Below, piece by piece: positions 4,986 through 62,114 of a stretch of DNA of 64,000 nt. This DNA comes from Thermoplasmata archaeon (GTDB lineage Archaea; Thermoplasmatota; Penumbrarchaeia; JAEHCK01), in NCBI GenBank assembly GCA_020696345.1, contig JAEHCK010000003.1, positions 10,270-74,269 on the forward strand, read 5' to 3'. The notes below the pieces were generated by a model that was not told the DNA's origin, did not search any database, and worked only from the letters and a program-made list of their open reading frames with translations. Position 1 is the first letter of the stretch. Each line of letters begins with the position of its first letter. The translations under genes were made by a program, and so were the position numbers.

Positions 4986-5012
4986 TAATATCCTATAGTG
5001 ATATTTATTATA

Positions 5013-5020
5013 AATATAAA
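5013..5020 (-). promoter_or_regulatory. Putative archaeal TATA box (TTTATATT on the minus strand) for the giant beta-helix gene
   Basis: The box lies ~28 nt upstream of ATG 4985, which would give a leaderless or very short-leader mRNA. The call rests on sequence only. Confidence 0.35.
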
Positions 5021-5076
5021 GATTTTTCCAGTATCGCTTTTTTAATAATTTCACTTATAATAATGATAATTATCAA

Positions 5077-7407: not shown

Positions 7408-7427
7408 ATCTTACACCTACCCTCACA

Positions 7428-12704: not shown

Positions 12705-12707
12705 AGC

Positions 12708-13394
12708 CTATTCGTTAATGTGCTCTTTATGAATAAGACCGCTGCGCATCTCCACCACACGCCCGCACACTTTTCCCACAGAAGGATCATGTGTGACTAT
12801 GACGAATGTCTGGTTATTCTCTTTATTCAATTTCATCAATAGTTTCATGATATCTTGAGAGTTTTTGGTGTCCAAGTTACCTGTGGGCTCATCGGCCCAG
12901 ACTATGATGGGTTGATTTACTAGACTTCTTGCAATGGTCACACGTTGTTGCTCGCCACCACTCAACTCGGCCGGTTTATGGTATTTCCATTCGGTCAGAC
13001 CCACCAGGCTAAGTGTCTTTTCTGCTTTTTCACGCGCTTCCTTGGACCGCATTCCGCTGACCAGCAGGGGAAGCTCAACATTTTCCACGGCGGTTAGTAC
13101 CGGCAATAAGTTAAAGCTCTGGAAGATGAAACCCATTTTCATGGCTCGATACTCGGTTCTCGCATTATCTGACATTGCATGTACATCATTACCTTCAAGC
13201 AGTACTTTTCCTTTGGTCAGGTCATCAAGACCGGACAAACAGTTCAGAAGTGTGGTCTTCCCGCACCCCGATGGACCCATGATCGCAACCATTTCTCCCT
13301 TTTTAACCTCAATATCGATGCCCTTGAGTGCTTTGACCTGGATCTTACCTGTATCGTATGTTTTGTATACATTTTTCGCTTTGATCATGCTCAT
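12708..13394 (-). CDS. ABC transporter ATP-binding protein (MacB/LolD-like)
   Basis: It has Walker [10 protein letters not shown], the signature [15 protein letters not shown], Walker [13 protein letters not shown] and an H-loop VTHD. Confidence 0.95.
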
Positions 13395-21800: not shown

Positions 21801-24800
21801 ACAACGATCTATTCAAAATCAAAGTGATACCCGGTGGGTACTCGCAATATGCAACATTAAGTACCGATAAAACCAGAATGCTCGAATCTAATGAATTCGA
21901 ATATATAGAACTACAAGTTAAAATACCAAAAAGCGCGGCACCAACAGAGCCCACCACGGGAAGAAGCGTGATAGTATACGTATGGTCAGATGAGGACGAA
22001 ACGGCAAATGAGACCATCACTTTAATAACTCATGTCGAACAGGTCTTTAAACTTAAACTCACGACAGTTATTACCACCCAGACACTAGATCCCGGGGAAA
22101 ATACCACTTATCAGGTCAATGTAAAAAATGAAGGTACTGGTATAGATAATATTGAACTTGATTATCAAAAGACCCAACATCCGGAAAATATAAAATCCAT
22201 TTCCTTCAACAAATATTTCTTGACATTATTACCTGGTCAGACAGAATCTGTTATTGTCACCGTTGAGATTGTCAAAGAACCCGAGGAGGGAAAATTATTA
22301 CCAAAGATCGATATTACCGTAACCTCACTGAACGACACTACGGATACACCGGAAACAGATTCAAAAGAGATTCAGGTAGAGATCAATCCAACAGTGGACA
22401 TTGAACTTCAAGTGGACAAGATCAAAAAGGATATAGTACCGAACCTGAGCGGGACTAAGGCAGAAGTAGAGTATACTGTAACGGTCTGGAACCGTGGTCT
22501 AGGCAGTGATTCTTTTGATATCACGGAATATAACAACCACGGATATTTGGTGGAAATAAGCCCGACTACAACTAACAAGATAGACCCGGATCAATCAGCA
22601 GTTGTAACTGTGAAGATCAAAATCGATAACAAAGCATCAATGTCACTTTTAGACTATAACACTACGATAACAGTCACATCCAGGACAAATGATGAAAAAT
22701 CGGATATAATAACATTAAAGACCAAGATAAAACAGGCATATGGTGTAGAACTGCAAGTTCTGGATGATTCGGTGGAGACCGATGATATATTTGTGGGAAA
22801 TAACAGAATAGTGACTTTCTATGTGGATGTTCAGAATATCGGTACTGGTGATGATACATTCAAATTGGAATTGAGCGGTACAAAAGAAAGTTGGGCATCA
22901 CTAAGCAAGAGTTATTTGACCTTAGACTCCAAGGATAACCAAACCGTAACCGTGCGTGTCAAGATACCGCGAGAGAGTGCAATTGGAGATATTTCCATAG
23001 ATTTGAAGGCGATCTCGCGTGGTGATGATGATAAATACGATTCCAGTGATGCATTTGATGAAGATACATTAAAAGTTGAAGTAACCCAGTTCTTCGAAGT
23101 CTCATTAACCACACCAGAAACTTTAATATCAGGGTTGCCGGGTGATAATATTGATTTTACGGTAACCATAACCAATCGTGGTAATGGAGACGACAGCATT
23201 GAAGTGAGGAAGAAGTTATTCGACCCCGATTGGGTGTGGACGATCAGCCCGAGCAAGTTCTCACTTAAAGCCACCGGCGATGGGGATGGTGGCGATATCA
23301 AGGAGATAACCCTGTCCGTGGATATACCCACAGATAAACATGGAAAGAGTGGCTATTACAATATCTCCATATTTGTATATTCCGTTGATACGCCGGAAGG
23401 TCAAATGCTGCAAAATAATGGTGAACCATTGCTCTTCACGGTCAAGGTCGACCCCGAATACGAAGTGGATATGATCTTAGATTATCCGACAACATCAACC
23501 GAAGAGAAAGCCGACCCGGGTAGATCGATTGAATACCAGTTCACGATCAAAAATAAGGGAAATACAGTGGATACTTACACGATCACCGTTAGCGGCGCAA
23601 AATCGGGTTGGGTAAATCTGCCAACCAGATCATTAACCATACAACCATTCAAATCTACAAAATTAAATCTCACGGTTGACATTCCGGCTCTGGGTGATGT
23701 AGATGCGGATGAGATCGAAGCAGACAAATATACAATTACATTCAAGGTAACCTCCGAAGGCGACTCCGATGTTAAGGATGAACAAGATATTCAGCCAAGT
23801 GTGAACAAGAAATATGATATAGTGCTCGAGACTGACGAGTTACAACTCGATGCAAGTGATGCGGGATTGATAACGGTCGATCCTAACATCGAACCCGGTT
23901 ACGAGAGATTCACTCTAACCTTGAAAAATTATGGCAATACCAGGGATACGGTATCACTTTCCACGAGGTCTTCGGATTGGACAGTTAAATTCGATAATCA
24001 GATCTCCAAATCGGTAATTGTTGATCTGGATGCAACAGTATCAATTACCGTAGAGATCTCAGCGCCGGATGATGTGAGTAATGGCGAGACCGAAAAACTC
24101 ACCATCACCGCAAAGTCAGCAGACGGGAAGACCAAAGAGACATTTATTGTAAAGCCAACGATAGAGACCGCAGAGATCAAATTTGGAGAATTAACGATCA
24201 TAGGAGACAAAACGGCCGGTTCAAAAGTAACGGTTAAGCTGATCGTTAGGAATATTGGTGATGTCGACGCTGAAGATGTGGAAATTAAATTCTATGACAA
24301 GGACAAATCAAATGTAATACATACCGAGCTAATTGATAAAATTTCCAAGGAAGGTGAAGAAGTGGTACAATTCACATATGAGATCAAAGAAGGTGACCAT
24401 GATATAAAGGCAGAGAGTGAATGGTTAGGTGAAACCGTCAAACAAAACAATGTATTCTCTGCTGAAAAAGAGCTTCTATCACAAAATACACTTCTTATGA
24501 TCATGATCGTTGGCTTGGTAGTGGTATTTATCGTTGGTGTAATAATTGCTTCAATGTCATATTCACGAGGCATACCGCCGGACCTGAAAGAAGAGATAGC
24601 ATTGGCCAAACAGGCAAAACGCATGGGCAAATCGGAGGAAGAGATCCAGGATATGAGGCGGAAGAGAATGGGGAAAATGGGTGCGGACAAGAAAAAGCCG
24701 GGAATGGGAACGGCGTCTGGATTCGATAAAGAAGTCCCACTACTCCCACCAGGAGAAGAAGAGGAAAAAGAAGCCCCACGCAAAAAAGGCAAAGGTAAAG

Positions 24801-24913
24801 TAATGCGGATCAAGTGCCCAAAATGTGATAAGATACAAACAGTAACTTCTGCTAAACGGCCAATTGAATTTCCATGCACTAACTGCGGTATGAAACTGGT
24901 ATTGAAAAAATAA
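18836..24913 (+). CDS. Giant single-pass surface protein (2,025 aa) with at least 16 CARDB/NEW3-like beta-sandwich repeats, a C-terminal TM helix and a cytoplasmic tail bearing one zinc ribbon
   Basis: A GGAGGT Shine-Dalgarno sequence lies 6 nt upstream of the ATG. The signal/anchor is RILIAIMMIISTLAIISLVSFNASA. The repeat motif PGE-x3-F-x-[FV]-T-[VI]-x-N-x-G-x-x-x-D recurs (VTNDGNTKD, ITNKGNGQD, VENTGTVND, ITNRGNGDD and others). The TM helix LLMIMIVGLVVVFIVGVIIASM is encoded at 24491-24556. The tail ends IKCPKCDKIQTV...FPCTNCGMKL. Confidence 0.85.
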   Translation: MVFNANLKNKDRIKTNKRVIRILIAIMMIISTLAIISLVSFNASATAILSIEINPSDTSSKTIYPNGPSVTYQIDITNYGQGGNINVTNSTPPTGWTCFLDQTLVYLDGTGGSTTVTLTVDCPNTATSISKEGQYAQIIVTANEVGAGPENAKQITTTSTIGQEYSLSLVNKTGDPYTKSPDEFGKAEFDLTVNNTGNGKEYITWQTTDAPGTVVISPGYVNAFTEKDFNLRISNIPEDITKGIHSTKVVALSENTTISAEFNVEVYVEAIYDLTLNLNETKAYKDVLPGESNTFNFTVTNDGNTKDNMKVTTGFKSAAAGWSLLLNTQNEFSINQDETKGIQIEVSAPSNQSYPFTVPIFVNCGSKSNTSIFKNTTVNAKIEQINKIKLDMPLVKTLDIDTFTAIFLMNVSNTGNGMDTINFDPIPSELFPDDEIWSYDFIYDDTSISSITIPSDESREVLLNFTSPENPKKGSFQLYINASSDNDESQKVSKKITISVKDRFNIELISISGTQHSAYPGETIPIQIQGKNIGNVEGTFNLNIKKPFNAIEWETPVFEPPVFLSMSVDEVRLSYLNITVDNDAQKGFYLFIVNATRGSGQDLEIYDSFVLNISVKRKYEVQLSVDDPVLNAVPGTPASFEFTIQNKGTGSCNVTMEATMGTEEATWLNVKISPSSFELPTALASQTVWVNVTPSASSPLAPMNLSGVQVTITADITEKIGTPDASKEINIKINQTYSVETYAETLHITINPGETTNFNVTITNKGNGQDSYGVYAAATRSGWVVTPTKPNTEKLNQDDEEKIMITFEVPTNEVPISDTISVEVVSRGDATKSIIENITVKINIIKGVKLTTLNNRKACAPGKFVVFNITVENTGTVNDTYKLTISDAESFIDILDMTSEIYVVKGSQDWVDVKVSINGSDVYKPLPSNTNITLEATSKTNIDITYDFVLSLTIIPERDVDLSSTDLEKEGEPQDILTFNFTVTNTGTDNDLFKIKVIPGGYSQYATLSTDKTRMLESNEFEYIELQVKIPKSAAPTEPTTGRSVIVYVWSDEDETANETITLITHVEQVFKLKLTTVITTQTLDPGENTTYQVNVKNEGTGIDNIELDYQKTQHPENIKSISFNKYFLTLLPGQTESVIVTVEIVKEPEEGKLLPKIDITVTSLNDTTDTPETDSKEIQVEINPTVDIELQVDKIKKDIVPNLSGTKAEVEYTVTVWNRGLGSDSFDITEYNNHGYLVEISPTTTNKIDPDQSAVVTVKIKIDNKASMSLLDYNTTITVTSRTNDEKSDIITLKTKIKQAYGVELQVLDDSVETDDIFVGNNRIVTFYVDVQNIGTGDDTFKLELSGTKESWASLSKSYLTLDSKDNQTVTVRVKIPRESAIGDISIDLKAISRGDDDKYDSSDAFDEDTLKVEVTQFFEVSLTTPETLISGLPGDNIDFTVTITNRGNGDDSIEVRKKLFDPDWVWTISPSKFSLKATGDGDGGDIKEITLSVDIPTDKHGKSGYYNISIFVYSVDTPEGQMLQNNGEPLLFTVKVDPEYEVDMILDYPTTSTEEKADPGRSIEYQFTIKNKGNTVDTYTITVSGAKSGWVNLPTRSLTIQPFKSTKLNLTVDIPALGDVDADEIEADKYTITFKVTSEGDSDVKDEQDIQPSVNKKYDIVLETDELQLDASDAGLITVDPNIEPGYERFTLTLKNYGNTRDTVSLSTRSSDWTVKFDNQISKSVIVDLDATVSITVEISAPDDVSNGETEKLTITAKSADGKTKETFIVKPTIETAEIKFGELTIIGDKTAGSKVTVKLIVRNIGDVDAEDVEIKFYDKDKSNVIHTELIDKISKEGEEVVQFTYEIKEGDHDIKAESEWLGETVKQNNVFSAEKELLSQNTLLMIMIVGLVVVFIVGVIIASMSYSRGIPPDLKEEIALAKQAKRMGKSEEEIQDMRRKRMGKMGADKKKPGMGTASGFDKEVPLLPPGEEEEKEAPRKKGKGKVMRIKCPKCDKIQTVTSAKRPIEFPCTNCGMKLVLKK

Positions 24914-24993
24914 GATCGTATTCCCAAAAGATATATATTATAGAACAAGTATTTGAGGGAAAGAGAGAATTATTCCGTTCAGGAGGAAGATTA

Positions 24994-27900
24994 TTGACTT
25001 TTTATGGGCCTATTTTTCTTTCGAGTTCTTACAAATTTAGATCACGAAAAAATAACCGGGTTAGACGCAAATTATCCTCGTCATTGGTAATTATTTTACT
25101 ATTTTTTTCGATGATAACGCTGGTTCTACCAAGTTCAAATGTCGCCGCTCAGCGTGATGGGTTCGAATATTTCGTGCCAGTGCCGTATATACAAAGAATA
25201 GACGACGATATGGATGGTTACTTTGAAACTGCCAGGATCCATTATGACGTGGATACCAATGTGGCATATGCTGAGATCAAGGTTGTGTGCTCGGTATACG
25301 ATGACGAGACTGATCAATTAGTAAAAGAGATCTCGGAAACGTATACGATATTTTGGCGGGTGGAGGTCACGGATACGTATATTGATTACAAAACCAGCTA
25401 CTCAGGGACTTTCAATTTTACCTTGGCAGTGTACGATGTTATACACAATAAAAAAGAAAATGGAGGTAATGACTATCCTGTGGAAAATACTACATTAAAA
25501 GTAAACCCATATGGTTACCGCATTGTACCTGATGCCATCGGTTATGATGCAGATGCTGATGGGTATAACGACGACGTGAAGATCATTGTTCGAGATTCTT
25601 ATAATTATACACTTCAAGATGTAGAGATATACATTGACGGTGAATATAAAGGTAAGACCGCTCAAGATGGTACGTTTTTGAAATTCAATTACCCCCGCGG
25701 CGTCCACGAGGTTGATGCATTTTACCATGGCGAACACGGCAATACCGACTTCAAATCGGAGGGTACGGGACAGGAGCTCTCAATTTACGCAGATGCCGAT
25801 CCATTCGATGACGATGGAGATGGGTACATTGATGATGTATTAATTCGCGCCTACGCGTATAATTTCTACCCGCTGCCGAATGCGCAAGTCTACATCGACT
25901 ATTACTATTACGGCACAACTAACCAGGATGGTCTACTTTATGCTTATAATTTTGAGCGTGGATTCCATTATGTGGACATTTATATGCGCAACTTCTGGAC
26001 CAGCACGACCTTCTATGCTGAAGGGCTGAATCAATCGAATGTACAAGAATATTTTGCATGGGTTGAGGCAAGTGTAGTATCCCTGGACAATGGCAATCTC
26101 GCTAATGATATTGATATTTATCTTGATGTGGATGTAGAGGGTGGCAAGACATCAAATGTAACTGTTAATGCAACATTATTTTACGAAAATCGCACGGTTG
26201 CTGCGGAGAGTTCTACGAACTATACGGCTATCGGTTATGAGATCGAAGATGAACATATTTATTTCCATAATGTAACTGCAAATCTTACATATAACCTAAG
26301 GTGCGAGCTATTTGATGATTTTGGGAACTTGGAGGATGTGTGGTATATTTGGGATATTGTTATCCAGATATCGTATGGAATGGTCAATGTTGACAAATTC
26401 GTTTTTGACCTTGATGACGATAATCATCTCAATGATGTGATCTTCTGGGCGCATATTAAAGATGAAGGCTATACCGATGCAAACATCAAAGTGTATTGGG
26501 AAAGTAATAGTACCATGGCACACAATGTTAACACATCACTTGAAAGAGGTTATGCAGTTATAGAAAACATGCAATATTCAAATTATACCTGGGTAGCATA
26601 TGATGGGGATAGTATTGAGATCGACAACGGCACCTTTCGGCTATATGACCGCAACCCATTACGAACGGTTCAGATACGAGTGCAATTACACGACGCCGAT
26701 CGAGATAACTTCTATGATGACTTTAGTATCAGAGCATACGATGAACGAGATGTTCCAGATAATACTGTTTCAGTTATGATAATTGATGCTAAAAATAACC
26801 AGACCGTTGCCCTGGGATTCACATCAGCCCAGACCCCTGGCGGCCCGGGTAGATTTATGGTAGAGGACCTGCAGGAAGGATATTATAGATTTACCGCAAC
26901 TATTTTATTTGGCACATCAGAGTCTTATATCATAAGCACGGGATGGTTTTATTCATATGGTAACAGCACGGAATCAACACATAATTTGAACGCATTTGCA
27001 GTTGGTCTTGACCTGGATAGTGATGGCTATAAGAACGATGTGGAGATTACCATCACCGACCGTAACGGCCAGCCGGTTATGAATGCAATTGTTTATTTCG
27101 ATAATGATTATCAAAACAGCAAAACTACCGATCAAAATGGTATAACATATCGCACGAATTTCACTTTTGGCTGGCATGATGTAAATGTAGTCTTTTTGGG
27201 AATATCCTCGAGTGTCCCAACCGGTGCACAGGCGCACACCAGGTTCTTCTCTGAAGGTCTTAATTATGATGAATATTTCTTTTGGGTTAATTTTAGAACA
27301 ATAAACCTTGATAATGATGACCATTGGAATGATTTAGAAATTTTTATGGATGTGGATGTTGACGAGGATGTTACTGTTGAGGTTAGTGTCGAAGTTGAAA
27401 TCCATTATTCATCTAATGATACCCTATTTGCTCAAGAAATGATTGAATTTGAAATCTTTAGCGCAGTCGGGGAGAGTAATTATGTTTTCATTAATAATCT
27501 AACTTATAACGAATATTTTCATGCAAATTTGACATTGAAGGATAAAGATGGAAATATCGAAGATTATTGGAATAAATCAAAAATTCTTGTTATACCTATT
27601 ACTCCACTTGTAAATATTGATGTATTCTTAGATCAATATAATGACCAGAGTGTGACTACTAATTTCTTATCATTTAATGCCCATATACTAGACATGGGAA
27701 TAGAAAATATTACAATCAGAATTTATTATTTAAGTAATGACACGGAAGTAGCGGAGGTAACTACAAATATTTATGGAGATGCCTGGGTTGGCCAACAGTT
27801 GGAGGATGGTGACTATTATTATATAGCAACCAATAGCACTAATCATACAGCCGAGTATGGAGAAATCAATATTGGCAATCACTCAGCTAGTATTTATGAA

Positions 27901-30900
27901 CTTCTAAGGGACTGGGATAACGATAATTTCCATGATGATTTTTCATATACAGGAAAATATTATAATGTCACACCTATTGGGATAATCCAGGAACACATTA
28001 ACATAACTATCTCTATTTATGATTTACAAGATAATTTGCTGGATCAGGGAAATACTGAAACAGTTTGGCATTTTTATAGTTATAATTATACTGAAGGTTA
28101 TTATAAATTTATAGCTACTTACGAGAGCCAGCGAGTCACCAATGGTACATTTTATTCATATGGCAACGGTTTTAGTAACCGGGCACCCACGGCCATTATT
28201 TCAAAACCGGTTAATAACTCTGAATGGTTAACCACCGAATATATTAATTTCGACGGCTCAACAAGTTCTGACCCTGACTTGGACGTTATTGATTTTTATT
28301 GGACATCTAATATTTCTGGTCCACTTGCTTATAAAGCAACATCTACGCAGAAATTACCTGAAGGCATTCATAAGATCACATTATTTGTTGACGACGACCA
28401 TGGACATAATGTTACCGATTCGGTGACCATAAGAGTAAATTCTCCGGTAATAAACGTGACAAATCAACTGCCAACTGCAAATGCCGGACCTGACCAAGAC
28501 AATGTACCTGTAAATACCAAAGTGACACTTGACGGCTCAGGTTCCTCGGACCCGGATGGGTATATAACGGAGTATAATTGGACATTTGTGTCAGGACCAT
28601 CGACACCGGCACTTAATGATAGTACTTATGTAAAACCCACATTCACCCCAACCACCATAGGAACCTACAAGTGGGAGTTGGGTGTCAAGGATAACAATAG
28701 TGAATGGAGTGTTACTGAAGATGAAGTTATTATTGAAGTGATCGAGAATCAACTACCTATCGTGAATATATCGCTGCCTATTGACATGGCGAAATTCAAC
28801 ACTACCGACACAATCTTCTTCGAGAGCAACGGTACATACGACCCCGATGACGATACAAACGGCAACGGCACCATCGATGGCTCGGAGATAGATAATCTTA
28901 CCTATAGTTGGATTGCAGCGCAGGGTAATGCTACCCCGGTGGAAATCAGCACAAAAGCTTACTTCAATATTTCAGATGTCAATACTCTCCTGGGTACTGG
29001 TGCATTTATTATCAATCTTACGATCTTGGATACATTAGGCGCAAATGCAGGCACCGAGATAGAGATCAATATCTCAAATGTTCCACCGGTTGCGAATATC
29101 ACAACCCCCGAAGAGGGCGAGGTATTCAATAAATTCACACCAATTTATTTGGACGGCACTGCCTCCGAGGATGCGGATAACGATACAACCCAATTGTATT
29201 ATTATTGGCTCGTGGAAAAAGATGGTGTTACGAAATTCACATTTGCAAACACATCAAACCCGGTCATCCAAGAGGGCCTGGAGGAAGGCGATTATACGAT
29301 CACACTCTGGGTGGACGACAGTGTTGAAACCGACCTAGACCTGTTTGATAGAGTACATAATGTTTCTACAATCGTCAACATCTCGGTTGAGAACCGGGCG
29401 CCAGTGCCGAAGTTCAGCATGTATTACCCCGATGATGCCTACCCAAATACGATCAATCTTGGTGAATTAGCATTTTTCAATGCCTCCAAATCAAGTGACC
29501 CGGACGGCGAGCGTGATGAGGCGAACTTCACGTATGCCTGGGACTTCGGTGACGGTATGACCGGATCGGGTATGGTGGTGAATAACAGCTATTCCGGTGA
29601 CGGAGAATTTGATGTTCCCCTAACATACGTTGTCAATTTAACAATAAAAGATTCCGGGAGCGTGCACAATAAAACTGCTTGGACCAACTTGACCATCCGG
29701 ATCAATCGTATCCCGGAGGCGCGTGCGGGTGACGATATCGATGATGCGAGCGCTGGTGAAGATATCTTGCTTGATGGTTCGGGTTCATATGATGAGGATG
29801 GAGACATATTAGACTACCAATGGACATTTGATGAGGAGAATTCCGATAAAGATACGATTTGGAGCACCAGCCCTTATACGAATGTGACTTTTGATGATGC
29901 TGGTGATTATATCGTAATTTTAAATGTATCTGATGGCCTTGGCTGGGCACTTCAGTCGATCACAATTACGGTGACCAAAGCAAATTCAGCACCAATCTGT
30001 GTTGCAGGGGGAGATATCAAAGATGTCGAGATCGATGAAGCAATATTCTTCAGCGGTATCAATTGTTCCGACCTGGATACTGGTGATGTTCTGACATTTA
30101 CCTGGGATTTCGGCGACGACTCATTAACCAAAGAAGGGATCAATGTAACGCACATATATTCGGAGAATGGTGAATATACTGTAACCTTGAACGTAACTGA
30201 CGACCATGGTGCCTGGGCCAATGATACATTGATCGTGACCGTTCGCCCGCCGCCAGCAGTGATCGAGCTGCCATACGATGGCGAAACACTGGAGAAGATC
30301 GTATATATAACTGGAACGACCGGTGGAAATGATATCGACGCCGTGGAAGTACGGATAGGTAAATATGTAACTGAAAACAAAAATAGTTTTGTGGCCGGGC
30401 CATGGCGAATGGCCACACCAATCGATATCGATGACTGGTCAGAATGGAGCTTTGAATGGGACACTACAAAAGATGATGATGCGGAGTATATAATCTCGGT
30501 TCGGGTTACCACTACTTATGGATCTACTTCTCAAATGACCGAAATAGATGTAATCGTGGCAAACGGACCCGAAACAACCGAGCTGAAGGTCACAATAACA
30601 AATCCCGGAAATAGTCAGACCGTGAAAAAGACAGTAACTATCAGCGGCACCACAGAAGGCGACAATATCGTCAAAGTCGAAGTGCAAATAGGCAATGATC
30701 AGTGGGAGCTGGCAAATAACGATGGTGGTGACTGGTCGGCCTGGAGCTATGATTGGGACACAACAAAAGAGATTGATAATAGGAACTATCAGATCACGGT
30801 ACAGGTCACCGATGGTGACGGCAATTACAAAACCGAAATAATTACCGTAAAGGTCCTCAACGCGGCAGCAACCGAACCAGATGAAGATGAAGAAGCCGAA

Positions 30901-31581
30901 AGTATATTGGATACGCTGTTTCCCGGGATGGCTACGAATGCTCAATATGGCATTTTAGGAGGAATCGTATTATTGATCCTCATAATTTTATTATTGGTTG
31001 TTCGCAGCAAAAAGAAACGAACGCGATCGGAAAAAGATGAAGAGATCTTCAAAGCTACAGAAGAAGAGCGTATCGAGAAAGAGAAACTCAAAACCGAGGA
31101 AGAAGAGAAGAAATTGGAAATGGTATCCAAACAGCCGGTTCGATGCCCCACATGCAAGGAATATTCGGTGATCGAGGATGATGGCACGCGACCGTTGATG
31201 ATCGAGTGTGTGCACTGCGGCGCCAAGGGCTTTATCAGCCTGAAATCAAAGGGCTTGGGCGCACCAAAACTGCCCAAGGATGAAGAAGAAGAGAAACCGA
31301 TCATACGGTGCCCCAAGTGCGACGAGATGTTCACGGTGGACGATGAGGGTGGGGCGATCGAGTGCCCGAACTGCGGTGCAAAGGGTCAACTGAACGAGAA
31401 AACCTTGGAAGAATTAAAAAAGAAACAAAAAAAGGAGAAAGCAAAGCCATCTCCATCAAGGTTTATATCGACACAACCAAAGAAAAATATCAAATGCCCG
31501 AGCTGTAGTAATCAATTCTCTATACCGGCAGATGCAAAAAAGATAGAATGTCCGAGTTGTGGGGTAACAGGTAGTTTGTAG
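24994..31581 (+). CDS. Giant single-pass surface protein (2,195 aa) with Ca-binding-like DxDxDG modules, ~8 PKD domains, Ig-like domains, a C-terminal TM helix and a cytoplasmic tail bearing three zinc ribbons
   Basis: The start is TTG, preceded by AGGAGGA 6 nt upstream, and the only nearby ATG is out of frame. The signal/anchor is LVIILLFFSMITLVLPSSNVAAQ. PKD signatures are present (ANAGPDQ...VTLDGSGSSDPDG...YNWTF; FDGSTSSDPD). The TM helix YGILGGIVLLILIILLLVV is encoded at 30946-31002. There are three CPxC...CPxCG ribbons at 31138-31578. Confidence 0.85.
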   Translation: MTFYGPIFLSSSYKFRSRKNNRVRRKLSSSLVIILLFFSMITLVLPSSNVAAQRDGFEYFVPVPYIQRIDDDMDGYFETARIHYDVDTNVAYAEIKVVCSVYDDETDQLVKEISETYTIFWRVEVTDTYIDYKTSYSGTFNFTLAVYDVIHNKKENGGNDYPVENTTLKVNPYGYRIVPDAIGYDADADGYNDDVKIIVRDSYNYTLQDVEIYIDGEYKGKTAQDGTFLKFNYPRGVHEVDAFYHGEHGNTDFKSEGTGQELSIYADADPFDDDGDGYIDDVLIRAYAYNFYPLPNAQVYIDYYYYGTTNQDGLLYAYNFERGFHYVDIYMRNFWTSTTFYAEGLNQSNVQEYFAWVEASVVSLDNGNLANDIDIYLDVDVEGGKTSNVTVNATLFYENRTVAAESSTNYTAIGYEIEDEHIYFHNVTANLTYNLRCELFDDFGNLEDVWYIWDIVIQISYGMVNVDKFVFDLDDDNHLNDVIFWAHIKDEGYTDANIKVYWESNSTMAHNVNTSLERGYAVIENMQYSNYTWVAYDGDSIEIDNGTFRLYDRNPLRTVQIRVQLHDADRDNFYDDFSIRAYDERDVPDNTVSVMIIDAKNNQTVALGFTSAQTPGGPGRFMVEDLQEGYYRFTATILFGTSESYIISTGWFYSYGNSTESTHNLNAFAVGLDLDSDGYKNDVEITITDRNGQPVMNAIVYFDNDYQNSKTTDQNGITYRTNFTFGWHDVNVVFLGISSSVPTGAQAHTRFFSEGLNYDEYFFWVNFRTINLDNDDHWNDLEIFMDVDVDEDVTVEVSVEVEIHYSSNDTLFAQEMIEFEIFSAVGESNYVFINNLTYNEYFHANLTLKDKDGNIEDYWNKSKILVIPITPLVNIDVFLDQYNDQSVTTNFLSFNAHILDMGIENITIRIYYLSNDTEVAEVTTNIYGDAWVGQQLEDGDYYYIATNSTNHTAEYGEINIGNHSASIYELLRDWDNDNFHDDFSYTGKYYNVTPIGIIQEHINITISIYDLQDNLLDQGNTETVWHFYSYNYTEGYYKFIATYESQRVTNGTFYSYGNGFSNRAPTAIISKPVNNSEWLTTEYINFDGSTSSDPDLDVIDFYWTSNISGPLAYKATSTQKLPEGIHKITLFVDDDHGHNVTDSVTIRVNSPVINVTNQLPTANAGPDQDNVPVNTKVTLDGSGSSDPDGYITEYNWTFVSGPSTPALNDSTYVKPTFTPTTIGTYKWELGVKDNNSEWSVTEDEVIIEVIENQLPIVNISLPIDMAKFNTTDTIFFESNGTYDPDDDTNGNGTIDGSEIDNLTYSWIAAQGNATPVEISTKAYFNISDVNTLLGTGAFIINLTILDTLGANAGTEIEINISNVPPVANITTPEEGEVFNKFTPIYLDGTASEDADNDTTQLYYYWLVEKDGVTKFTFANTSNPVIQEGLEEGDYTITLWVDDSVETDLDLFDRVHNVSTIVNISVENRAPVPKFSMYYPDDAYPNTINLGELAFFNASKSSDPDGERDEANFTYAWDFGDGMTGSGMVVNNSYSGDGEFDVPLTYVVNLTIKDSGSVHNKTAWTNLTIRINRIPEARAGDDIDDASAGEDILLDGSGSYDEDGDILDYQWTFDEENSDKDTIWSTSPYTNVTFDDAGDYIVILNVSDGLGWALQSITITVTKANSAPICVAGGDIKDVEIDEAIFFSGINCSDLDTGDVLTFTWDFGDDSLTKEGINVTHIYSENGEYTVTLNVTDDHGAWANDTLIVTVRPPPAVIELPYDGETLEKIVYITGTTGGNDIDAVEVRIGKYVTENKNSFVAGPWRMATPIDIDDWSEWSFEWDTTKDDDAEYIISVRVTTTYGSTSQMTEIDVIVANGPETTELKVTITNPGNSQTVKKTVTISGTTEGDNIVKVEVQIGNDQWELANNDGGDWSAWSYDWDTTKEIDNRNYQITVQVTDGDGNYKTEIITVKVLNAAATEPDEDEEAESILDTLFPGMATNAQYGILGGIVLLILIILLLVVRSKKKRTRSEKDEEIFKATEEERIEKEKLKTEEEEKKLEMVSKQPVRCPTCKEYSVIEDDGTRPLMIECVHCGAKGFISLKSKGLGAPKLPKDEEEEKPIIRCPKCDEMFTVDDEGGAIECPNCGAKGQLNEKTLEELKKKQKKEKAKPSPSRFISTQPKKNIKCPSCSNQFSIPADAKKIECPSCGVTGSL

Positions 31582-31823: not shown

Positions 31824-33077
31824 TTATCGTCCATATACTCTCCTCAAATTTTTATCCTCTACAGGAAACTCTTCATAAACTCTATAAATCGCCTCAAGAG
31901 TTTTTATAGAATGCTCAAAACTAGTTCTTGGATGTATGTTTTCTTCAATTGCAATGTAAAAATCTTTGAGAATGTTCACATATTCATATTGCGAAGCTCC
32001 ACAATGCCATTCAATGGTTTTACCATCATCTTTATATTCAATTACCGTACCTTCAATAAAATCTATTGTCAAAACCGTTGAATTAACGGTTTTACCACTC
32101 TCATCCCTGTTTTCAAAAGTCACCTCAACTTTTTTGTTATCTTCTTTTGGTAATTTATCGGATTTGTTAATAAATTTTGCGAAAGTAAATTCTCCTTCTG
32201 TATTCTCCCAAAATAAATTACCACTAATTTCAAATTTAGTTTTTACATAAGTTTCAACATCATAGCGTTTGCATTTTTTATGTCCTGGGTATATATCATA
32301 TTCCGCACTTAAAATTTTACCGATTTCACCTTCTATGTTGGTTATTATACCGAATAAATGTACACCCATATCAAGAAGAAGGCCCGTTCTATTTTTTCTG
32401 CATAATAGATCCCTGGTTCTTTGTTTTTCTGGATCATCTTTTTCATACGTATATCCTTTTATCCCAGATATCTTGCCATAGATTTTTGCTGTCTTTTCTA
32501 TGTTTTCATAAAAAGCCATGGATGCTTTTTTAGCAGAATAATGCTCGGCATCCATCATAATACACTTAGATTTGTGATCCTTGACAAGTTCTTTGAGTTT
32601 TTTAAGATATGTTTCGTTACCTTCGTCAGCTTTGTGATTCTCATCGGTAACAGTAACTAATGGTTTTTCGCATAAGACATGTTTATTATTTTTTAATAAC
32701 AATTCAATATAATCTAAGTGAGTTGTGTTTGAAGTATGAATAACTGCAGCATCATAACCCTCTTTGGGTATTTTTCCATTTATAACTGAATAATAATCTA
32801 TTTTTTTGCTCTCCAAATCCTCTTTAAGTCGTTTTGCGCTTTCTATTTCTGCATTTGTATTCTCCTCTCTCCATTTTTTCCCTTTTTCTAAAGCTATTTC
32901 TCTCTTTCCTATTTCACTAGATAATTTATCTATTACATCTGTTTTTATTGGTTCTAGACCACAAATTCCAACTAAATCGAAATACTCAGAAAGTCCATAT
33001 TTAAAAATAGCCGGAAAGAATTTTGCAAGTGCCCACTCTGAGATACACCCAATTTGAAGTAGGTTTATTTTTTTCAT
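31824..33077 (-). CDS. Gfo/Idh/MocA-family NAD(P)-dependent sugar oxidoreductase
   Basis: It has an N-terminal Rossmann-like start (INLLQIGCISEWA), the family motif VLCEKPL, and a C-terminal alpha/beta dimerisation region. The length is 417 aa with insertions. Confidence 0.75.
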   Translation of the reverse strand: MKKINLLQIGCISEWALAKFFPAIFKYGLSEYFDLVGICGLEPIKTDVIDKLSSEIGKREIALEKGKKWREENTNAEIESAKRLKEDLESKKIDYYSVINGKIPKEGYDAAVIHTSNTTHLDYIELLLKNNKHVLCEKPLVTVTDENHKADEGNETYLKKLKELVKDHKSKCIMMDAEHYSAKKASMAFYENIEKTAKIYGKISGIKGYTYEKDDPEKQRTRDLLCRKNRTGLLLDMGVHLFGIITNIEGEIGKILSAEYDIYPGHKKCKRYDVETYVKTKFEISGNLFWENTEGEFTFAKFINKSDKLPKEDNKKVEVTFENRDESGKTVNSTVLTIDFIEGTVIEYKDDGKTIEWHCGASQYEYVNILKDFYIAIEENIHPRTSFEHSIKTLEAIYRVYEEFPVEDKNLRRVYGR

Positions 33078-33365: not shown

Positions 33366-34472
33366 ATGCACCCTTCAATTATTCGTATCGGAACCTCAAA
33401 CATACGCACGGGCAAAGACGGTTATACCTGGGGAAGACCGGCCAAAGATTCACACATACTTCGGTTATTAGATATTAAGCCTGAGGACATTGATATAGCT
33501 GAAGACGAGCCTGTAGGTGAACTTTGGCTTGCCTCGGATGATAAGACCTATCCTTCATTAGTACACTTAGATGGCGGCTCAACCATTACCCTTACCGAAC
33601 TTCTTGTAAAAGATGGAAGATCCATCCTAGGAGAAAAACATTTTTCACTCTACGGGCCGCATATTGCTACAATAATGAAATTGATCGATGCTGGCCAACC
33701 ATTATCCGTTCAAGTTCACCCGGCCATGGGCCATCCTTCACGGCCGGCAAAACCGGAGATGTGGATGATCGTAAGGTCAGGTGCACGATTTTATATTGGT
33801 TTTAACCGGGATATTTCTATCGAGATGTTAAAAAAAGCATATGAGGATGGTACTCTTGAAGGTCTACTGTATCAATTAGAAGCCGGACCTGAAGAGCTTT
33901 TTATTGTGAGTGGTGGATTGATCCATGCTTTGAGAGCAGAAACAACACTCTGGGAATGGTCACATGCTCTTACTGGCAAGGAACTCGAACGAGGCGACCT
34001 CAAGGGCGCCACCGTTGCTCTGTGGGATAGAACGGACGGTAAGGAGCCGCGGCCCGACAAAGAAGATCTGGAGGGAACTATAGAGGTATTGGACGATGCC
34101 GCCGAAAGAGCACGAATACCCGTGTATAATAAAGTAGTATTAGATAAAATACGAAGCCAGAGAAACACTATTTATTCGGATCTGAGGAAAAACAAAATTG
34201 ATAGACTCTTCACCACTGATGAGGTCATTGTAGATGAGATCATTTTAGATAATACGTTGCCGCAAGATACCGACGATCACGGCTATCCTATTTTTATATT
34301 GGAGGGCACTGTAGAGATCCAGGCACCGGATGGTGCAATGCTTGATAAATTAACCACAAACGATTGTGCAATAATTCCCGCCTATTTGGGTAAACATACG
34401 CTCGTTAACAGATCCACCGAACCATCCAAGATCATCAGATGGTATGCACCGATCGATAAGATGTTTTGCTAG
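33366..34472 (+). CDS. Type I phosphomannose isomerase-like cupin (mannose-6-phosphate isomerase)
   Basis: It has LSVQVHP, the metal-binding signature of class I PMI, followed by a C-terminal cupin half. Confidence 0.7.
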   Translation: MHPSIIRIGTSNIRTGKDGYTWGRPAKDSHILRLLDIKPEDIDIAEDEPVGELWLASDDKTYPSLVHLDGGSTITLTELLVKDGRSILGEKHFSLYGPHIATIMKLIDAGQPLSVQVHPAMGHPSRPAKPEMWMIVRSGARFYIGFNRDISIEMLKKAYEDGTLEGLLYQLEAGPEELFIVSGGLIHALRAETTLWEWSHALTGKELERGDLKGATVALWDRTDGKEPRPDKEDLEGTIEVLDDAAERARIPVYNKVVLDKIRSQRNTIYSDLRKNKIDRLFTTDEVIVDEIILDNTLPQDTDDHGYPIFILEGTVEIQAPDGAMLDKLTTNDCAIIPAYLGKHTLVNRSTEPSKIIRWYAPIDKMFC

Positions 34473-35261: not shown

Positions 35262-38200
35262 ATGAAGCTTATTGATGTTTTAAACCTCCCCCTGGAGCTA
35301 GAGCCTGTCTTAGCCCAGTTAAAAGGCTTGGAAGAACTGGTTAATGGCGCTTTATCTAACTTAGAGGTAGTTGATTATACAATTGGCACTCAAAGCACAA
35401 CCGAGGACCTTAAAGCAATGATCGGCACTGAGAGTTTAAGTCTATTATCAACCGGTTATCTTGCCCAGAGATTGTTCAAGGCTGAACAGGATGTCAAGAC
35501 AATTTCTTACCTATATATGCTCTCATATTTCAGAAGCCTTCCACATGAAAAACGCCACCAGGCAAAAGGCGAACTGAATGAATTAACCAGCGGCAACGAA
35601 AGCCATTTGGGAGATAAACTATTCATGGAGATAAACCTGGACCTGGATGATGTCATCAATAACAAAGATCTGAAGGCTCTAATAATTCTAAGGGACCAGG
35701 TAGTAAGCCGCACAAGAGCCTTACGTATCGCCTTTGAGACCTCTGGTCTTAATATGAACGATCTGGAATTAATTACACGGAACCCTAAGTTACTGCACAC
35801 TGTGCTGGGCTTGCGTACCGCAGCGGCTATAGAGAACAACTACACCAACAATGAACTTTCACGACTGAAAACACTACTCAATGTCTTTGACCATGTTGAA
35901 GGGGCGGCAATAAATTTAACACATTTGGCAGATGGTCAGATCTATATTTACGACGAATACCTCGTTAAACTAATTGTATTTGATCAGAATAACCATAAAA
36001 AATCCTCACTTTCTTTACATAATGAGGGGGTTGAACATTTGATCGGCCTCGATATGGCCAAACGTTCAGGCGAACTCTATCATCTGACCGAGGCATCATG
36101 CATAATTAACGATAGATCTTTGAACCTGTTGATCAAGTCCATTGCAGGACCATTATTGACCGATCGTAAAGATGATCGATTTACCAGTTGGGATAGTGAG
36201 AGATATATCTGGCGATCAGCAGGTTTGGGCAGTCGTTTCTATGAGCTAGAACGTCCCAATGTTGATGTCGTTGCCATGGCAACCATCGACCGTGAAGTGG
36301 CAACCTACAACCAGATAGAAACCGAATTGGAAAACTGGCGGATCTTTAACCGCAGACCCATCTTCATGTTGATCGATGATTCAGGAGTAACGCGCGATGG
36401 AAAGCCCGATTCACCAAATCCGATCTTGGATGCTAATATTCGCAACCTGGAGCGTCTCCATAAAAAATTTGGAGACCGGTTCATTCATCTGACCTACGAA
36501 AACAGGGATAGCGACCAGGCTGCATGGGCAGAGGCCACATTTAATAGACTGGAGGCAAAGCTGAAGAACAACAATCTTGAACCCGTGCTAATGACGATAT
36601 TAAAGGAATACAGAGAGGGTAATATTCTCCTGAACGAAGATGGATGTTCAATCAATAAAACAGCATTTACAAAATATATATCCAGCAACATTTTTAGACA
36701 CATTTCCGGCGTTCGTAATTACACATTCTTAAAAGCACTGGGTTATCGCGTAATGAGCGAAGACGATGATGCACCGCCTGAAACCTATGTGGTCTTGCCA
36801 AAAGACCTGGAGCAGATCAGAAATAGACGTGAAACCGCCCGTAACAACGTGATGAAAGAACTATTTAGCGAATCATCAAAGATATTAGGAAAGCAGATAA
36901 CCTCAGAGGAACAGCTTTATCAATTCTGGGTAAATGAAACAAATCCTGAAAAACTCACCCAGCTAGATAAATTGGAGGATATTTATTTCGGGTATAGTAA
37001 GGATGGCGACTGCGGCCTTATTCCTCAGGCAGTAGAGCAGATACGTACCTATTCCAGCCACTATATGGATCCTCGGTATAAACGCACCCACCAGCGCTAT
37101 GAAGGCCTCAGCAGGCCGCAAGCTGGACATGATCAAGATGGCCGGATCATTTATGAGGACCTGCCGGAATATCTGATAACAATAAATGACTTCTATTATC
37201 GGCCTGGCCGCATAGAAAAGGATGATAACCAATGCTCGGTCTTTCCCGTAAATATCATCGGTAGCACGAGAGATCTGGGTAAAAAGGTAAAGGATACTAA
37301 TTTAATGGTATTCTCCAATAACCTGCGTCATACTGTTGCTATGCCGGCAGATGCAACTACGATTGAAGAAACCCAGGAAAAGATCATCGAATATATTGCC
37401 TTTCCATTTATTAATGACCATGACACCTCGGGCATGGCACAGTTCATCAGGTATCTATTAAGTAAAACCAAGTTCTGGTATGATCTGCAGCACACCCATC
37501 AATCTTCATTGATCGTTAATTCAGTGCGGGGTTATGTTACCTTTGGCTATGCAATATTCAACCGCTCTGCATTTCGCAATTTTATCCCGGGTGTATCTAT
37601 TGGACGCGAACTGCGCCTGGAAGAGCCGCCGTATATACCGTGGGTCAAGTCTCCGCTCTTTAAGGGCGAGCTGGTAGTCTCCTCTGGCAAGGTTGGAGGC
37701 GGTCAGCAGCGCCAGCCAAATGAACGCAACTATTGTATCAGTCAGCAAGATAACACAGAGGTACTGGGAACAACCGCGCGGCGCATATATGAAAAAGCAG
37801 TGGAAAACTACTATGAACATATTAATAAATTACCTGAAGACGATCTCCTTAAGCAAGAGGACAATCATTACGGCCGCTCTCTTCTTCTTGGTAATTATTA
37901 TATCGATGAAGCCAAGGCATTTAAGCTCAATGACTTGGAAATTGAACAGCTCAAGAGTGAGCGCAACTTCCGGAGTCAAATGGCCACTACCCTGGGTATT
38001 CAGATCGTTCAAATGGAGGAGAAGTTATTAAACGTTCAAAACACAGGTGAAGTATCAAATTCAGGAAAAGATGCATTACAACCTCAATTACAGGATATGT
38101 GCCTTATCTTGGTCCAGATGGCTGATGATTTTGATCTATATAATGCCCTGGACCGCAGGAAAAATGATTACTCGCCCAAAGACCCAACAAATGATTATTT

Positions 38201-38684
38201 CTATCGTTTAAGGATGCAAGGGGCCACCCTATTTTATAAAAAAGTAAGTCCACAACTCACAGTTGAAAATGTCAAGGGCATTATGATCGCCACTAAAGCC
38301 GGTTGGGTAGAACTGGAAGCCGAAAAGCAGTTGGAGCTGGATGAGACGAACCGTACATCGGTGAAGGATGAACTTTGTGATGCTATCCGTATCGAGATCG
38401 AACCCGGACGGTTCGTGTTTATGGAAAAAGATAGATTGCCAGAAGACGGACAAGAATTTTACGTCACTGCCGCCTCTCAAGATCATGAAAAAGATTTTAT
38501 TATCGGAGTAGAGAAACATATAATGGACTATGTTCAACACGATGGTGAGGCAATAGCTTTATGGGCAATACTTACCAATGAAGCCCAGAAGCTGGATTCT
38601 TCACACGAGATGGATGAGTTATTAGGAATAGAGGCCAATCGAGCGCCAAAGGAAGTTTATAGGGAGATTAAAAAAGATGGGTGA
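35262..38684 (+). CDS. Large cytoplasmic protein of unknown function (1,140 aa) with a possible GT-A-like core
   Basis: This is a long clean ORF with no TM segment, signal peptide or P-loop. MLIDDSGVTRDG (nt ~36368-36400) resembles the GT2 'DDGSTD' motif, and SEDDDAPP (nt ~36756-36779) could be a DxD motif. The stop overlaps the start of the next gene (ATGGGTGA). Confidence 0.7.
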   Translation: MKLIDVLNLPLELEPVLAQLKGLEELVNGALSNLEVVDYTIGTQSTTEDLKAMIGTESLSLLSTGYLAQRLFKAEQDVKTISYLYMLSYFRSLPHEKRHQAKGELNELTSGNESHLGDKLFMEINLDLDDVINNKDLKALIILRDQVVSRTRALRIAFETSGLNMNDLELITRNPKLLHTVLGLRTAAAIENNYTNNELSRLKTLLNVFDHVEGAAINLTHLADGQIYIYDEYLVKLIVFDQNNHKKSSLSLHNEGVEHLIGLDMAKRSGELYHLTEASCIINDRSLNLLIKSIAGPLLTDRKDDRFTSWDSERYIWRSAGLGSRFYELERPNVDVVAMATIDREVATYNQIETELENWRIFNRRPIFMLIDDSGVTRDGKPDSPNPILDANIRNLERLHKKFGDRFIHLTYENRDSDQAAWAEATFNRLEAKLKNNNLEPVLMTILKEYREGNILLNEDGCSINKTAFTKYISSNIFRHISGVRNYTFLKALGYRVMSEDDDAPPETYVVLPKDLEQIRNRRETARNNVMKELFSESSKILGKQITSEEQLYQFWVNETNPEKLTQLDKLEDIYFGYSKDGDCGLIPQAVEQIRTYSSHYMDPRYKRTHQRYEGLSRPQAGHDQDGRIIYEDLPEYLITINDFYYRPGRIEKDDNQCSVFPVNIIGSTRDLGKKVKDTNLMVFSNNLRHTVAMPADATTIEETQEKIIEYIAFPFINDHDTSGMAQFIRYLLSKTKFWYDLQHTHQSSLIVNSVRGYVTFGYAIFNRSAFRNFIPGVSIGRELRLEEPPYIPWVKSPLFKGELVVSSGKVGGGQQRQPNERNYCISQQDNTEVLGTTARRIYEKAVENYYEHINKLPEDDLLKQEDNHYGRSLLLGNYYIDEAKAFKLNDLEIEQLKSERNFRSQMATTLGIQIVQMEEKLLNVQNTGEVSNSGKDALQPQLQDMCLILVQMADDFDLYNALDRRKNDYSPKDPTNDYFYRLRMQGATLFYKKVSPQLTVENVKGIMIATKAGWVELEAEKQLELDETNRTSVKDELCDAIRIEIEPGRFVFMEKDRLPEDGQEFYVTAASQDHEKDFIIGVEKHIMDYVQHDGEAIALWAILTNEAQKLDSSHEMDELLGIEANRAPKEVYREIKKDG

Positions 38685-53494: not shown

Positions 53495-53756
53495 ATTACT
53501 TAATCTTTTTCAATTTTATTTAATGATTTTGGTATAATTGTATTATATTAACTGTTGAATATAAATTGTAGGTGGATAGTTATTGTGATGGATTTGAGTT
53601 GATAGATTATCATCCTCAGCAATAATTATTCTTTTATCTAAAACTATTTATACCACGATGACTTTCCAAACTTTGATACAAAATATTTAACATAATCTAT
53701 TTGTATGAAAACTACCTATGGGATTACCAATGGTATGACCAGTGGAGGAATACAAT

Positions 53757-55313: not shown

Positions 55314-55496
55314 TGATATCATATTGTCTCTTTTTATAACTTTATGAAAAAATAATCGGTTTTATATTGCTTATCAACATAAAATGTTATAAAGTATGAT
55401 TGAATTATGGTTTTTACAAAACCAAAATAAATTCCCTACCAGTTTGTTTTGGGGGTTTATTTAGGTATTGATCAAATCTGCCTATTAGGTGACAAT

Positions 55497-59137: not shown

Positions 59138-62114
<2,977 letters not shown>

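Follow-up and report, generated by a model that had tools for sequence, protein, structure and literature searches.

How the giant proteins on the outside of an archaeal cell might be connected with its interior is a question raised by a 64,000-nucleotide stretch of DNA from a Thermoplasmata archaeon (contig JAEHCK010000003.1, positions 10,270 to 74,269 of the forward strand; hereafter the window), in which a gene for a surface protein of 2195 amino acids (aa) ends in a tail of three tandem zinc ribbons. The link between archaeal surface proteins and the cell interior is little understood, especially in uncultured Thermoplasmatota, which are abundant in marine sediments. The exact sequence is present in a marine sediment metagenome, and a genome scan with the tail alignment gave matches solely in metagenome-assembled genomes (MAGs) of Thermoplasmatota. 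The answer favored here, with moderate confidence, is that the tail and its family act as a multivalent cytoplasmic protein-protein adaptor of giant surface proteins, built of independently folded ribbons and working in cis or in trans. This reading draws on the ribbon-specific conservation, the invariant residues that are not zinc ligands, a valency that runs from 1 to 10, the cis/trans association with giants, and characterized precedents. To judge from their sequences, the ribbons, ribbon 1 above all, are a phylum-wide and so far undescribed zinc-ribbon family of Thermoplasmatota; in the literature, no description was found of zinc-ribbon tails on archaeal (giant) surface proteins.

The open reading frame of the giant spans 24994-31581 on the + strand, with the stop codon at 31579-31581. 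A TTG start lies 8 nucleotides (nt) past GGAGG and leads into an N-terminal signal peptide (...RKLSSSLVIILLFFSMITLVLPSSNVAAQ; ...LVIILLFFSMITLVLPSSNVAAQ) at 24994..25152 (+); the full-length orthologue L001 has a counterpart signal peptide with an ATG start. The ectodomain, delimited by Pfam matches and composition as aa 54-1983 (25153..30942, +), is acidic and consists of Ig-like, PKD and Big_7 repeats, with matches to PKD_4 (4.9e-46, in 5 stretches), PKD (2.5e-32), K319L-like_PKD (1.8e-29), Big_7 (4.9e-11) and Y_Y_Y. The sole transmembrane (TM) helix, QYGILGGIVLLILIILLLVV (aa 1984-2003; 30943..31002, +), is modeled by AlphaFold2 (AF2) as a helix with a predicted local distance difference test score (pLDDT) of ~90 and is followed immediately by RSKKKRTR and the remainder of a 192-aa tail (aa 2004-2195; 31003-31578, +). 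A signal peptide, PKD/Ig-like repeats and a C-terminal membrane anchor, the features that define PKD-repeat archaeal surface proteins, are all present, and the predicted product is a single-pass type-I giant PKD/Ig-repeat surface protein of a marine-sediment Thermoplasmatota archaeon, probably glycosylated.

The tail opens with a K/E-rich linker of 43 aa (31003..31131, +), a putative spacer that AF2 models as one helix running on from the TM segment. It is followed by zinc ribbon 1, of type 1 (QPVRCPTCKEYSVIEDDGTRPLMIECVHCGAKGFI; 31132..31236, +), by a second linker of 20 aa (31237..31296, +) that is predicted to be disordered (pLDDT <50 at model residues 109-124), and by zinc ribbon 2 (PIIRCPKCDEMFTVDDEGGAIECPNCGAKGQL; 31297..31392, +). 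A short conserved helix, NEKTLEELKKKQKK (AF2 helix 161-176), and the basic third linker, with a net charge of +7, occupy 31393..31485 (+); the T and L of this helix are invariant in the orthologue alignment A1. Zinc ribbon 3 (NIKCPSCSNQFSIPADAKKIECPSCGVTGSL; 31486..31578, +) forms the extreme C-terminus and is the terminal element in all orthologues.

A preliminary description of the locus had placed the three ribbons of the 192-aa tail at 31138-31236, 31300-31392 and 31489-31578, and translation of 31003-31578 reproduces its peptides exactly. It had also given them a nearly uniform pattern with 15-19 residues between the knuckles and a second knuckle of the form CPxCG, and this needs correction: the spacers are 17, 14 and 14 residues in ribbons 1, 2 and 3, respectively, and ribbon 1 has CVHCG as its second knuckle. 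Its further claim that the neighboring giant carries one such ribbon holds, with the ribbon at 24806-24910. All three tail units and the neighbor's unit have the two CxxC knuckles and the short hairpin spacer of a C4 zinc ribbon, and each ribbon is predicted to bind one Zn2+. The pattern is not a chance product, because only five CxxC-x8-28-CxxC motifs occur in the whole 64 kb in six frames, namely the four ribbons and one in a 67-codon frame, and because shuffling the tail yielded three motifs in 0 of 20,000 trials, and shuffling the whole protein yielded even one in 0 of 2,000.

By every sequence criterion the tail is predicted to be cytoplasmic, as had been proposed, rather than extracellular. 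The protein has a signal peptide and then one TM helix followed by RSKKKRTR, and under the positive-inside rule a basic cluster after a TM helix marks the cytoplasmic side. The ectodomain holds 63 N-x-S/T sequons (3.3 per 100 aa) and the tail none. Cysteines are split the other way: 12 of the 16 outside the signal peptide and TM helix lie in the 192 tail residues, where they make up the Cys4 sites, versus 4 in 1931 ectodomain residues. The composition changes at the same border, from an acidic, N/T-rich ectodomain to a K/E-rich tail (17% K, 15% E).

The AF2 model of the TM helix with the tail (a 221-aa query with six sequences) has an overall pLDDT of 73.5. The TM helix and the 43-residue K/E segment form one continuous helix (model residues 4-68), and the three ribbons appear as separate four-stranded units that do not contact one another; the predicted template-modeling score (pTM) of 0.25 indicates that the tail is arranged as beads on a string. 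When ribbon 1 was modeled with a 48-sequence family alignment, a four-stranded fold with a pLDDT of 84.4 was obtained. Its best fold match in the PDB by Foldseek is the zinc ribbon (ZnR) of ZitP, 2nb9 (probability 0.99, TM-score 0.59-0.68, root-mean-square deviation 2.5 A over 40 columns), a match whose significance is weighed below, and the next matches are the ribbons of LysW, Tim15 and HOIP. The model of the whole tail found nothing significant in the PDB by Foldseek, the hits being RBR/IBR and C2H2 arrays with a TM-score of <0.2, as expected for beads. Designed C2H2 fingers that appeared in PDB profile searches were discounted as low-complexity CxxC matches.

The Pfam family that matches the whole tail best is Zn_ribbon_4 (PF13717), with 43.0 bits against a gathering score of 30.3. 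Ribbon 2 passes gathering scores by itself (Zn_ribbon_4, 34.6 versus 30.3 bits; Zn_ribbon_5 (PF13719), 30.8 versus 29.3), and ribbon 1 alone (13.5 bits) and ribbon 3 alone (23.5 bits) stay below the cut-off for MJ0042-type ribbons. DUF5817 reaches 40.8 bits when added over the three ribbons, no ribbon passing singly, and there are weak sub-gathering matches to Zn_ribbon_Brz, HVO_2753_ZBP and CPxCG_zf. A dedicated Pfam family was sought for the tail and for the type-1 ribbon, and only generic ribbon families match.

Comparison with orthologues, in which the preliminary description had seen a possible refutation, indicates that the ribbons are kept, and kept more strongly than the rest of the protein. 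Genomic loci compared here carry L-numbers and representative proteins P-numbers. The orthologue L001, from an uncultured Thermoplasmata MAG, is 2187 aa long and 60% identical overall; by segment, identity is 30% in the TM helix, 37% in the K/E linker, 89% in ribbon 1, 66% in ribbon 2, 35% in the third linker and 61% in ribbon 3. Ribbon 2 is kept in all orthologues, and the metagenomic fragments P0001-P0004 retain the TM helix and all three ribbons. The distant relatives P0005 and L002/L003, from Thermoplasmatales MAGs with a G+C (GC) content of ~50%, have an ectodomain of only ~1060 aa (PKD/REJ/Big_7) and a Pro-rich linker in place of the K/E helix, and their three ribbons keep both their order and their position-specific residues. 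The ribbons are, on these alignments, the best-conserved part of the C-terminal region, and since they are kept while the linkers diverge or are swapped, selection acts on the ribbons as such and on the linkers only as spacers.

A profile search with the tail, which the preliminary description had proposed, found the module behind the TM helix of many ectodomains and, in other lineages, in a separate adjacent gene. Among 1.84 billion representative proteins, 382 clusters matched at E<=1e-3, 56 of them at <=1e-10 and 10 at <=1e-30; the counts in the rest of this paragraph refer to the best 153 of the 382 matches. The TM helices lie only before the ribbons in 98 of the 153 and only after them in 4, and the other 51, which are fragments or soluble arrays, have none. 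The last ribbon ends <=12 aa from the protein end in 119. The relatives comprise type-I giants (800-3100 aa, 2-10 ribbons), a PKD set of ~1050 aa, ~200-aa proteins with two TM helices and two ribbons, and ~400-640-aa proteins with four TM helices and 2-3 ribbons. Unrelated cysteine-rich arrays also occur among the matches, such as P0024 (a DUF4379 treble-clef array), and were treated as noise.

Many of these proteins share a compact type-1 signature, [ILV]x[ILV][KR]-CxxC-x3-F-x-[VI]-x-D-x-G-x-RPL-x3-4-CxxCG-xx-G, which is present in 53 of the 153. Ribbon 1, which defines the signature, reads CPTC-KEY-S-V-I-E-D-D-G-T-RPL-MIE-CVHCG-AK-G and fits it in the form CxxC-x3-[FY]-x-[VI]-x-D-x-G-x-RP[LI]-x3-4-CxxCG-xx-G; ribbons 2 and 3 are without the RPL element. 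Across 48 type-1 family members, the four cysteines and the residues D, G, R, P and G do not vary, and a specific surface is suggested by the non-cysteine invariants (D, G, R-P-L, G).

The fused form is seen in the window, in L001-L003 and in the proteins of alignment A5. The ectodomains of 21 fused giants contain PKD (14), Big_7 (11), REJ (7), Big_9 (7) and NosD/beta-helix (5) domains, with single cases of CARDB/NPCBM_assoc, Peptidase_C11, FG-GAP and BNR, and from this diverse set it follows that the module has been joined to many different adhesin-like ectodomains. The number of ribbons per tail is 1, 2, 3, 5, 7 or 10; P0037 (2731 aa) has 10 ribbons after its TM helix and P0019 (715 aa) has 7 'KRPL' ribbons. 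Such variable and often high copy numbers would also suit ribbons that bind one another or those of neighboring molecules and so, without any further partner, arrange the giants from within as patches or a lattice, the more so as two adjacent giants in the window both carry the module and zinc ribbons can mediate oligomerization. That homotypic arrangement is nevertheless fairly unlikely: the modeled ribbons are independent and non-contacting (pTM 0.25), and each ribbon position keeps its distinct sequence over long distances, which fits distinct ligands or sites better.

The association of the module with giants extends to lineages in which the two are encoded separately, and this is the most telling of the results. 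The ~200-aa proteins have a conserved N-terminal W-x-P-x2-RR-x-(A/G)-S-L motif, two TM helices and two type-1 ribbons. This stand-alone family counts at least 97 clusters, all metagenomic, whose source names are only 'hypothetical' or 'zinc ribbon domain-containing'; those with labels come from Thermoplasmatota/Thermoplasmata MAGs and one 'Halobacteriales' MAG. Ten independent loci were examined (L004, L005, L006, L007, L009, L010, L012, L014, L015 and L016), and in every one a surface-protein gene on the same strand immediately precedes the small gene, at a distance of <=45 nt. In L006 and L007 the contig cuts this upstream giant; in the other eight loci it is complete and has 1903-2444 aa. 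A single base is common to both genes in L004 (TGATG), L007 and L009, and in L012 and L016 the overlap is 4 nt; these overlaps suggest translational coupling.

The giants of these loci are orthologous and deeply diverged (28-45% identity). In the eight that were read to the end (L004-L007, L009, L010, L012 and L014), the giant stops after a TM anchor and only an ...AAYGAFVRWK-like stub. The common C-terminal anchor motif, ...(L/V)A(A/L)A(A/G)YGAF(V/G)RW(K/R/P), is found in L004 at about 7830-7910, L005 at about 9570-9653, L006 at about 1300-1380, L007 at about 110-191 and L009 at about 560-641, and we take it to resemble a sorting signal such as PGF-CTERM. A shared high-GC Thermoplasmatota locus (L010, 3134-13850; L012, 3908-13094; L014, 901-12040; L015, 585-8609; L016, 466-10195) has the order DUF7557 (49-70 aa, divergent strand), giant surface protein, and protein with two TM helices and two ribbons. 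In L010, L012, L014 and L016, secreted or anchored proteins of ~610-695 aa and ~137-189 aa without Pfam matches come next and may be part of the same system; a tblastn search of the window for these ~650-aa and ~150-aa genes gave no homologues. As the same type of ribbon is fused to giants in some lineages and encoded beside tail-less giants in others, a Rosetta-stone argument from gene arrangement supports the view that the ribbon module works with giant surface proteins.

The separate arrangement also bears on a simpler explanation, in which the folded, charged tail binds nothing and acts as a topogenic stopper that fixes the type-I orientation and prevents extraction of the TM helix. The module is specific to very large single-pass proteins and the tail is strongly charged, and both would fit a stopper. 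However, the giants of the trans loci are anchored by a TM helix and an RWK-type stub with the ribbons on another polypeptide, so that ribbons are not needed for this purpose. A He_PIG/Big_9/GLUG/cadherin-like surface protein of 1655 aa in the window (43658-48625, +) is likewise anchored by a C-terminal TM helix with a short acidic tail (MSRRKPTQGPTPHEVEEEAEEEE) and has no ribbon, from which it also follows that not every giant of this genome carries the module. The 89% identity and the invariant surface-type residues of ribbon 1 exceed what a stopper would need, and a purely passive role is distinctly unlikely.

The preliminary description held that no characterized system resembled the tail, but membrane-tethered ribbons with known cytoplasmic partners have been described in three cases: ZitP with PopZ (PMC5182065), the GltJ ZnR with MglB (PMC11135422) and CdpC with FtsZ1 (bioRxiv 10.64898/2026.07.16.738847). 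In the bitopic protein ZitP of Caulobacter crescentus, an N-terminal ZnR of MJ0042 type binds the oligomeric scaffold PopZ with a dissociation constant (KD) of 700 nM, and binding requires the zinc ligands, a basic patch and W35, which lies 4 residues past the last cysteine (PMC5182065). Like the tail, it has a small Cys4 ribbon that faces the cytoplasm from a single-TM membrane protein. The ZnR of ZitP and GltJ consists of two two-stranded sheets with no third strand in the center, and ribbon 1, with its predicted beta-hairpins, may resemble it in fold. Unlike the tail, in which three C-terminal ribbons follow the TM helix, it has one N-terminal ribbon before it; the N-terminal position before the TM helix is usual for MJ0042-type ribbons and is found neither here nor in 98 of the 153 best relatives. 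The offset of W35 corresponds to an invariant Gly in the type-1 family, and the basic patch of ZitP contrasts with the acidic-to-neutral ribbons here. The sequence similarity to ZitP (E 0.17) is not significant, and PopZ is not known from archaea.

GltJ (AgmX) belongs to the gliding machinery of Myxococcus xanthus, where its cytoplasmic ZnR binds the GltJ linker, recruits MglB and regulates focal-adhesion complexes (PMC11135422). It shares with the tail a cytoplasmic ribbon on a transmembrane protein of an envelope machine, and it couples an envelope-spanning adhesion complex to cytoplasmic regulators. It differs in being bacterial and in working as a switch, its one N-terminal ribbon being accompanied by a GYF domain, and its PDB chain 7zok reaches only E 0.044, with partial coverage, against the type-1 profile. 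Archaeal small CPxCG proteins of the HVO_2753 and Brz families share the CPxC/CPxCG knuckles with the tail, but are free small cytoplasmic proteins, whereas the ribbons here are domains of a 2195-aa membrane protein.

The archaeal precedent is CdpC (HVO_0399, DUF7093), the FtsZ1 membrane anchor of Haloferax volcanii, whose C-terminal C4 ribbon binds FtsZ1 with a KD of about 0.1 uM and needs its four zinc ligands, and for which distant multi-zinc-ribbon relatives have been reported in all Thermoplasmatota classes (bioRxiv 10.64898/2026.07.16.738847). It raises the possibility that the ribbons of the tail bind FtsZ or another filament and tie the envelope giants to the division ring. As in the tail, a long linker, which in CdpC is disordered, separates the membrane end of CdpC from its ribbon, and the ribbons are conserved while the linker evolves fast; multivalency would suit a polymeric partner, and the organism encodes FtsZ. 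In contrast, CdpC is peripheral, held by an amphipathic helix, with no TM helix and no ectodomain, and has two ribbons, the N-terminal one being of C3H type. When compared through its Pfam family, CdpC gave no detectable match: DUF7093 does not occur among the 20 Pfam matches that ribbon 1 gives at E<=10, among the 25 best for ribbon 2, ribbon 3 or the whole tail, or among those of the relatives scanned. The FtsZ gene of the window (53742-54887, +; Tubulin 1.9e-47, FtsZ_C 3.5e-36) is 22 kb from the ribbon tail and is followed by genes for NusG/Spt5 (55449-56264, +) and ribosomal protein L11 (56293-56760, +), and as ftsZ-nusG-L11 is a usual arrangement, its presence is probably coincidental. 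An FtsZ or cytoskeletal anchor is, on balance, unlikely. The tail is accordingly best filed as MJ0042-like zinc ribbons in a new architectural and phylogenetic setting, outside the families of ZitP, GltJ and CdpC.

The preliminary description had envisaged the tail as a docking platform for a cytoplasmic partner, nucleic acid included. The docking part gains support, since the conservation and the cis/trans pattern support a dedicated cytoplasmic adaptor; the nucleic-acid part is disfavored by the charge of the ribbons. A tether that links the chromosome or transcripts to the membrane would agree with the fact that zinc ribbons often bind nucleic acids and with the stand-alone family members P0035 and P0051, in which a helix-hairpin-helix domain (DUF4332/HhH_5) is inserted between two type-1 ribbons; the automatic Joint Genome Institute (JGI) name 'nucleic acid-binding Zn-ribbon' is also found but is uninformative. 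With net charges of -1, -3 and +1 for ribbons 1, 2 and 3, however, the ribbons range from acidic to neutral, the type-1 signature centers on acidic residues (E/D-D-x-G-E), and no nucleic-acid-binding ribbon family matches above threshold, those of S27e, TFIIB and RpoP being sub-threshold or generic. Nucleic-acid binding is very unlikely, and protein docking is the most likely predicted function of the ribbons.

Several observations weigh against the protein adaptor. The Foldseek E-value of the match between ribbon 1 and 2nb9 is 0.12 and not significant, a weak value as expected since the domain has only 41 residues, and sequence and profile searches of the PDB with the tail and with the type-1 ribbon also gave nothing significant. 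The D-x-G turn and the Pro may be conserved for structural reasons alone. The lineages behind the trans loci are related, have a high GC content and share flanking genes (DUF7557, PurS/PurL), so part of the adjacency of giant and small gene may be inherited synteny. The fused gene has no conserved neighbors common to the window, L002/L003 and L017, and no co-occurring cytoplasmic gene was found at these loci.

If the adaptor reading is correct, the K/E-rich segment would continue the TM helix as a stiff spacer (an extended one elsewhere) and hold the ribbons several nanometers from the membrane, where the three Cys4 units would fold independently with flexible linkers between them. The ribbons would be supplied in cis, fused behind the TM anchor of the giant, or in trans, by the small protein with two TM helices and two ribbons whose gene would be translationally coupled to that of the giant. 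Their partner in the cytoplasm would probably be an oligomer or polymer, and through it the location, clustering or anchorage of the surface protein would be linked to the inside of the cell. A bolder and rather doubtful extension is that the family is the cytoplasmic half of a hitherto unrecognized transmembrane coupling system, in which glycosylated giants are wired, in cis or by way of the adaptor with two TM helices, to FtsZ (as the CdpC ribbon is), another cytoskeletal polymer or an ESCRT-like polymer. Thermoplasmatota are often without a rigid cell wall. Were this extension true, envelope organization would be mechanically linked to division and shape, as a prokaryotic counterpart of integrin-like outside-in coupling.

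The compact signature identifies, in many adhesin-like giants, the end that lies in the cytoplasm, and it identifies a separate coupled adaptor gene as well; for annotation it would bring about 100 clusters of 'hypothetical' or 'zinc ribbon domain-containing' proteins and dozens of giants together as one system. It also offers a handle for finding the intracellular partner, as a soluble tail of ~150 aa or a single ribbon of 35 aa could be expressed as bait. With the CdpC result, the attachment of envelope giants to the cytoskeleton becomes a testable idea.

The neighboring giant is an open reading frame of 2025 aa (18836-24913, +) with CARDB/NPCBM_assoc/FixG_C/Ig_VWA7 repeats, a TM helix (24491-24556, +), an 83-aa linker and the one ribbon noted above (+; RIKCPKCDKIQTVTSAKRPIEFPCTNCGMKLVLKK). 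It has 36 sequons outside and none in its tail, the same split as in the 2195-aa protein, and its ribbon, in which 'RP[IL]' precedes knuckle 2, is similar to the repeats of P0019/P0032/P0042. Such a pair of ribbon-bearing giants was not seen upstream of the L001 and L017 orthologues, where 190-590 nt are non-coding. A conserved promoter-like AT-rich block, ATATTCCCAAAAGAT.TATATTATAGAACAAGTATTTGA...AATTATTCC, lies 5' of the 2195-aa gene at about 24921-24985 of the window and is shared with the L001 locus (about 150-215), which suggests that the 2195-aa gene has its own promoter, apart from the gene of the upstream giant. A further giant open frame of at least 1684 codons (3-5054, -) runs off the start of the window, so that its C-terminus lies outside; it has a signal-anchor-like N-terminus and N-x-S/T-rich beta-helix-like repeats.

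Sugar-metabolism genes flank the giants: a GFO_IDH_MocA oxidoreductase, a type I phosphomannose isomerase and two phosphoglucomutase/phosphomannomutase-family genes, one of them AMG1-like, at 31824-33077 (-), 33366-34472 (+), 38677-40368 (+) and 40421-42199 (-). They could supply sugars to glycosylate the sequon-rich ectodomains. ABC ATPase genes (228 aa each) are paired with genes of large FtsX/MacB-type permeases (776 and 1195 aa) in two tandem units, at 5077-8114 (-) and 9117-13394 (-). An open reading frame of 1140 aa (35262-38684, +) matches nothing in Pfam at E<=1e-3 and has no evident signal peptide. PAC2 and PAN genes are also present in the window. A complete archaeal 23S rRNA gene is found at 59134-62114 (+; 2766.7 bits), with no 16S or 5S gene and no tRNA gene within the window; Thermoplasmata typically have their rRNA genes unlinked. 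The window also contains a clostripain-family peptidase gene at 52166-53494 (-; Peptidase_C11, 3.9e-41). Sediment Thermoplasmatota such as MBG-D are characterized by extracellular clostripains, and one fused ribbon-tail relative has an ectodomain of the Peptidase_C11 family.

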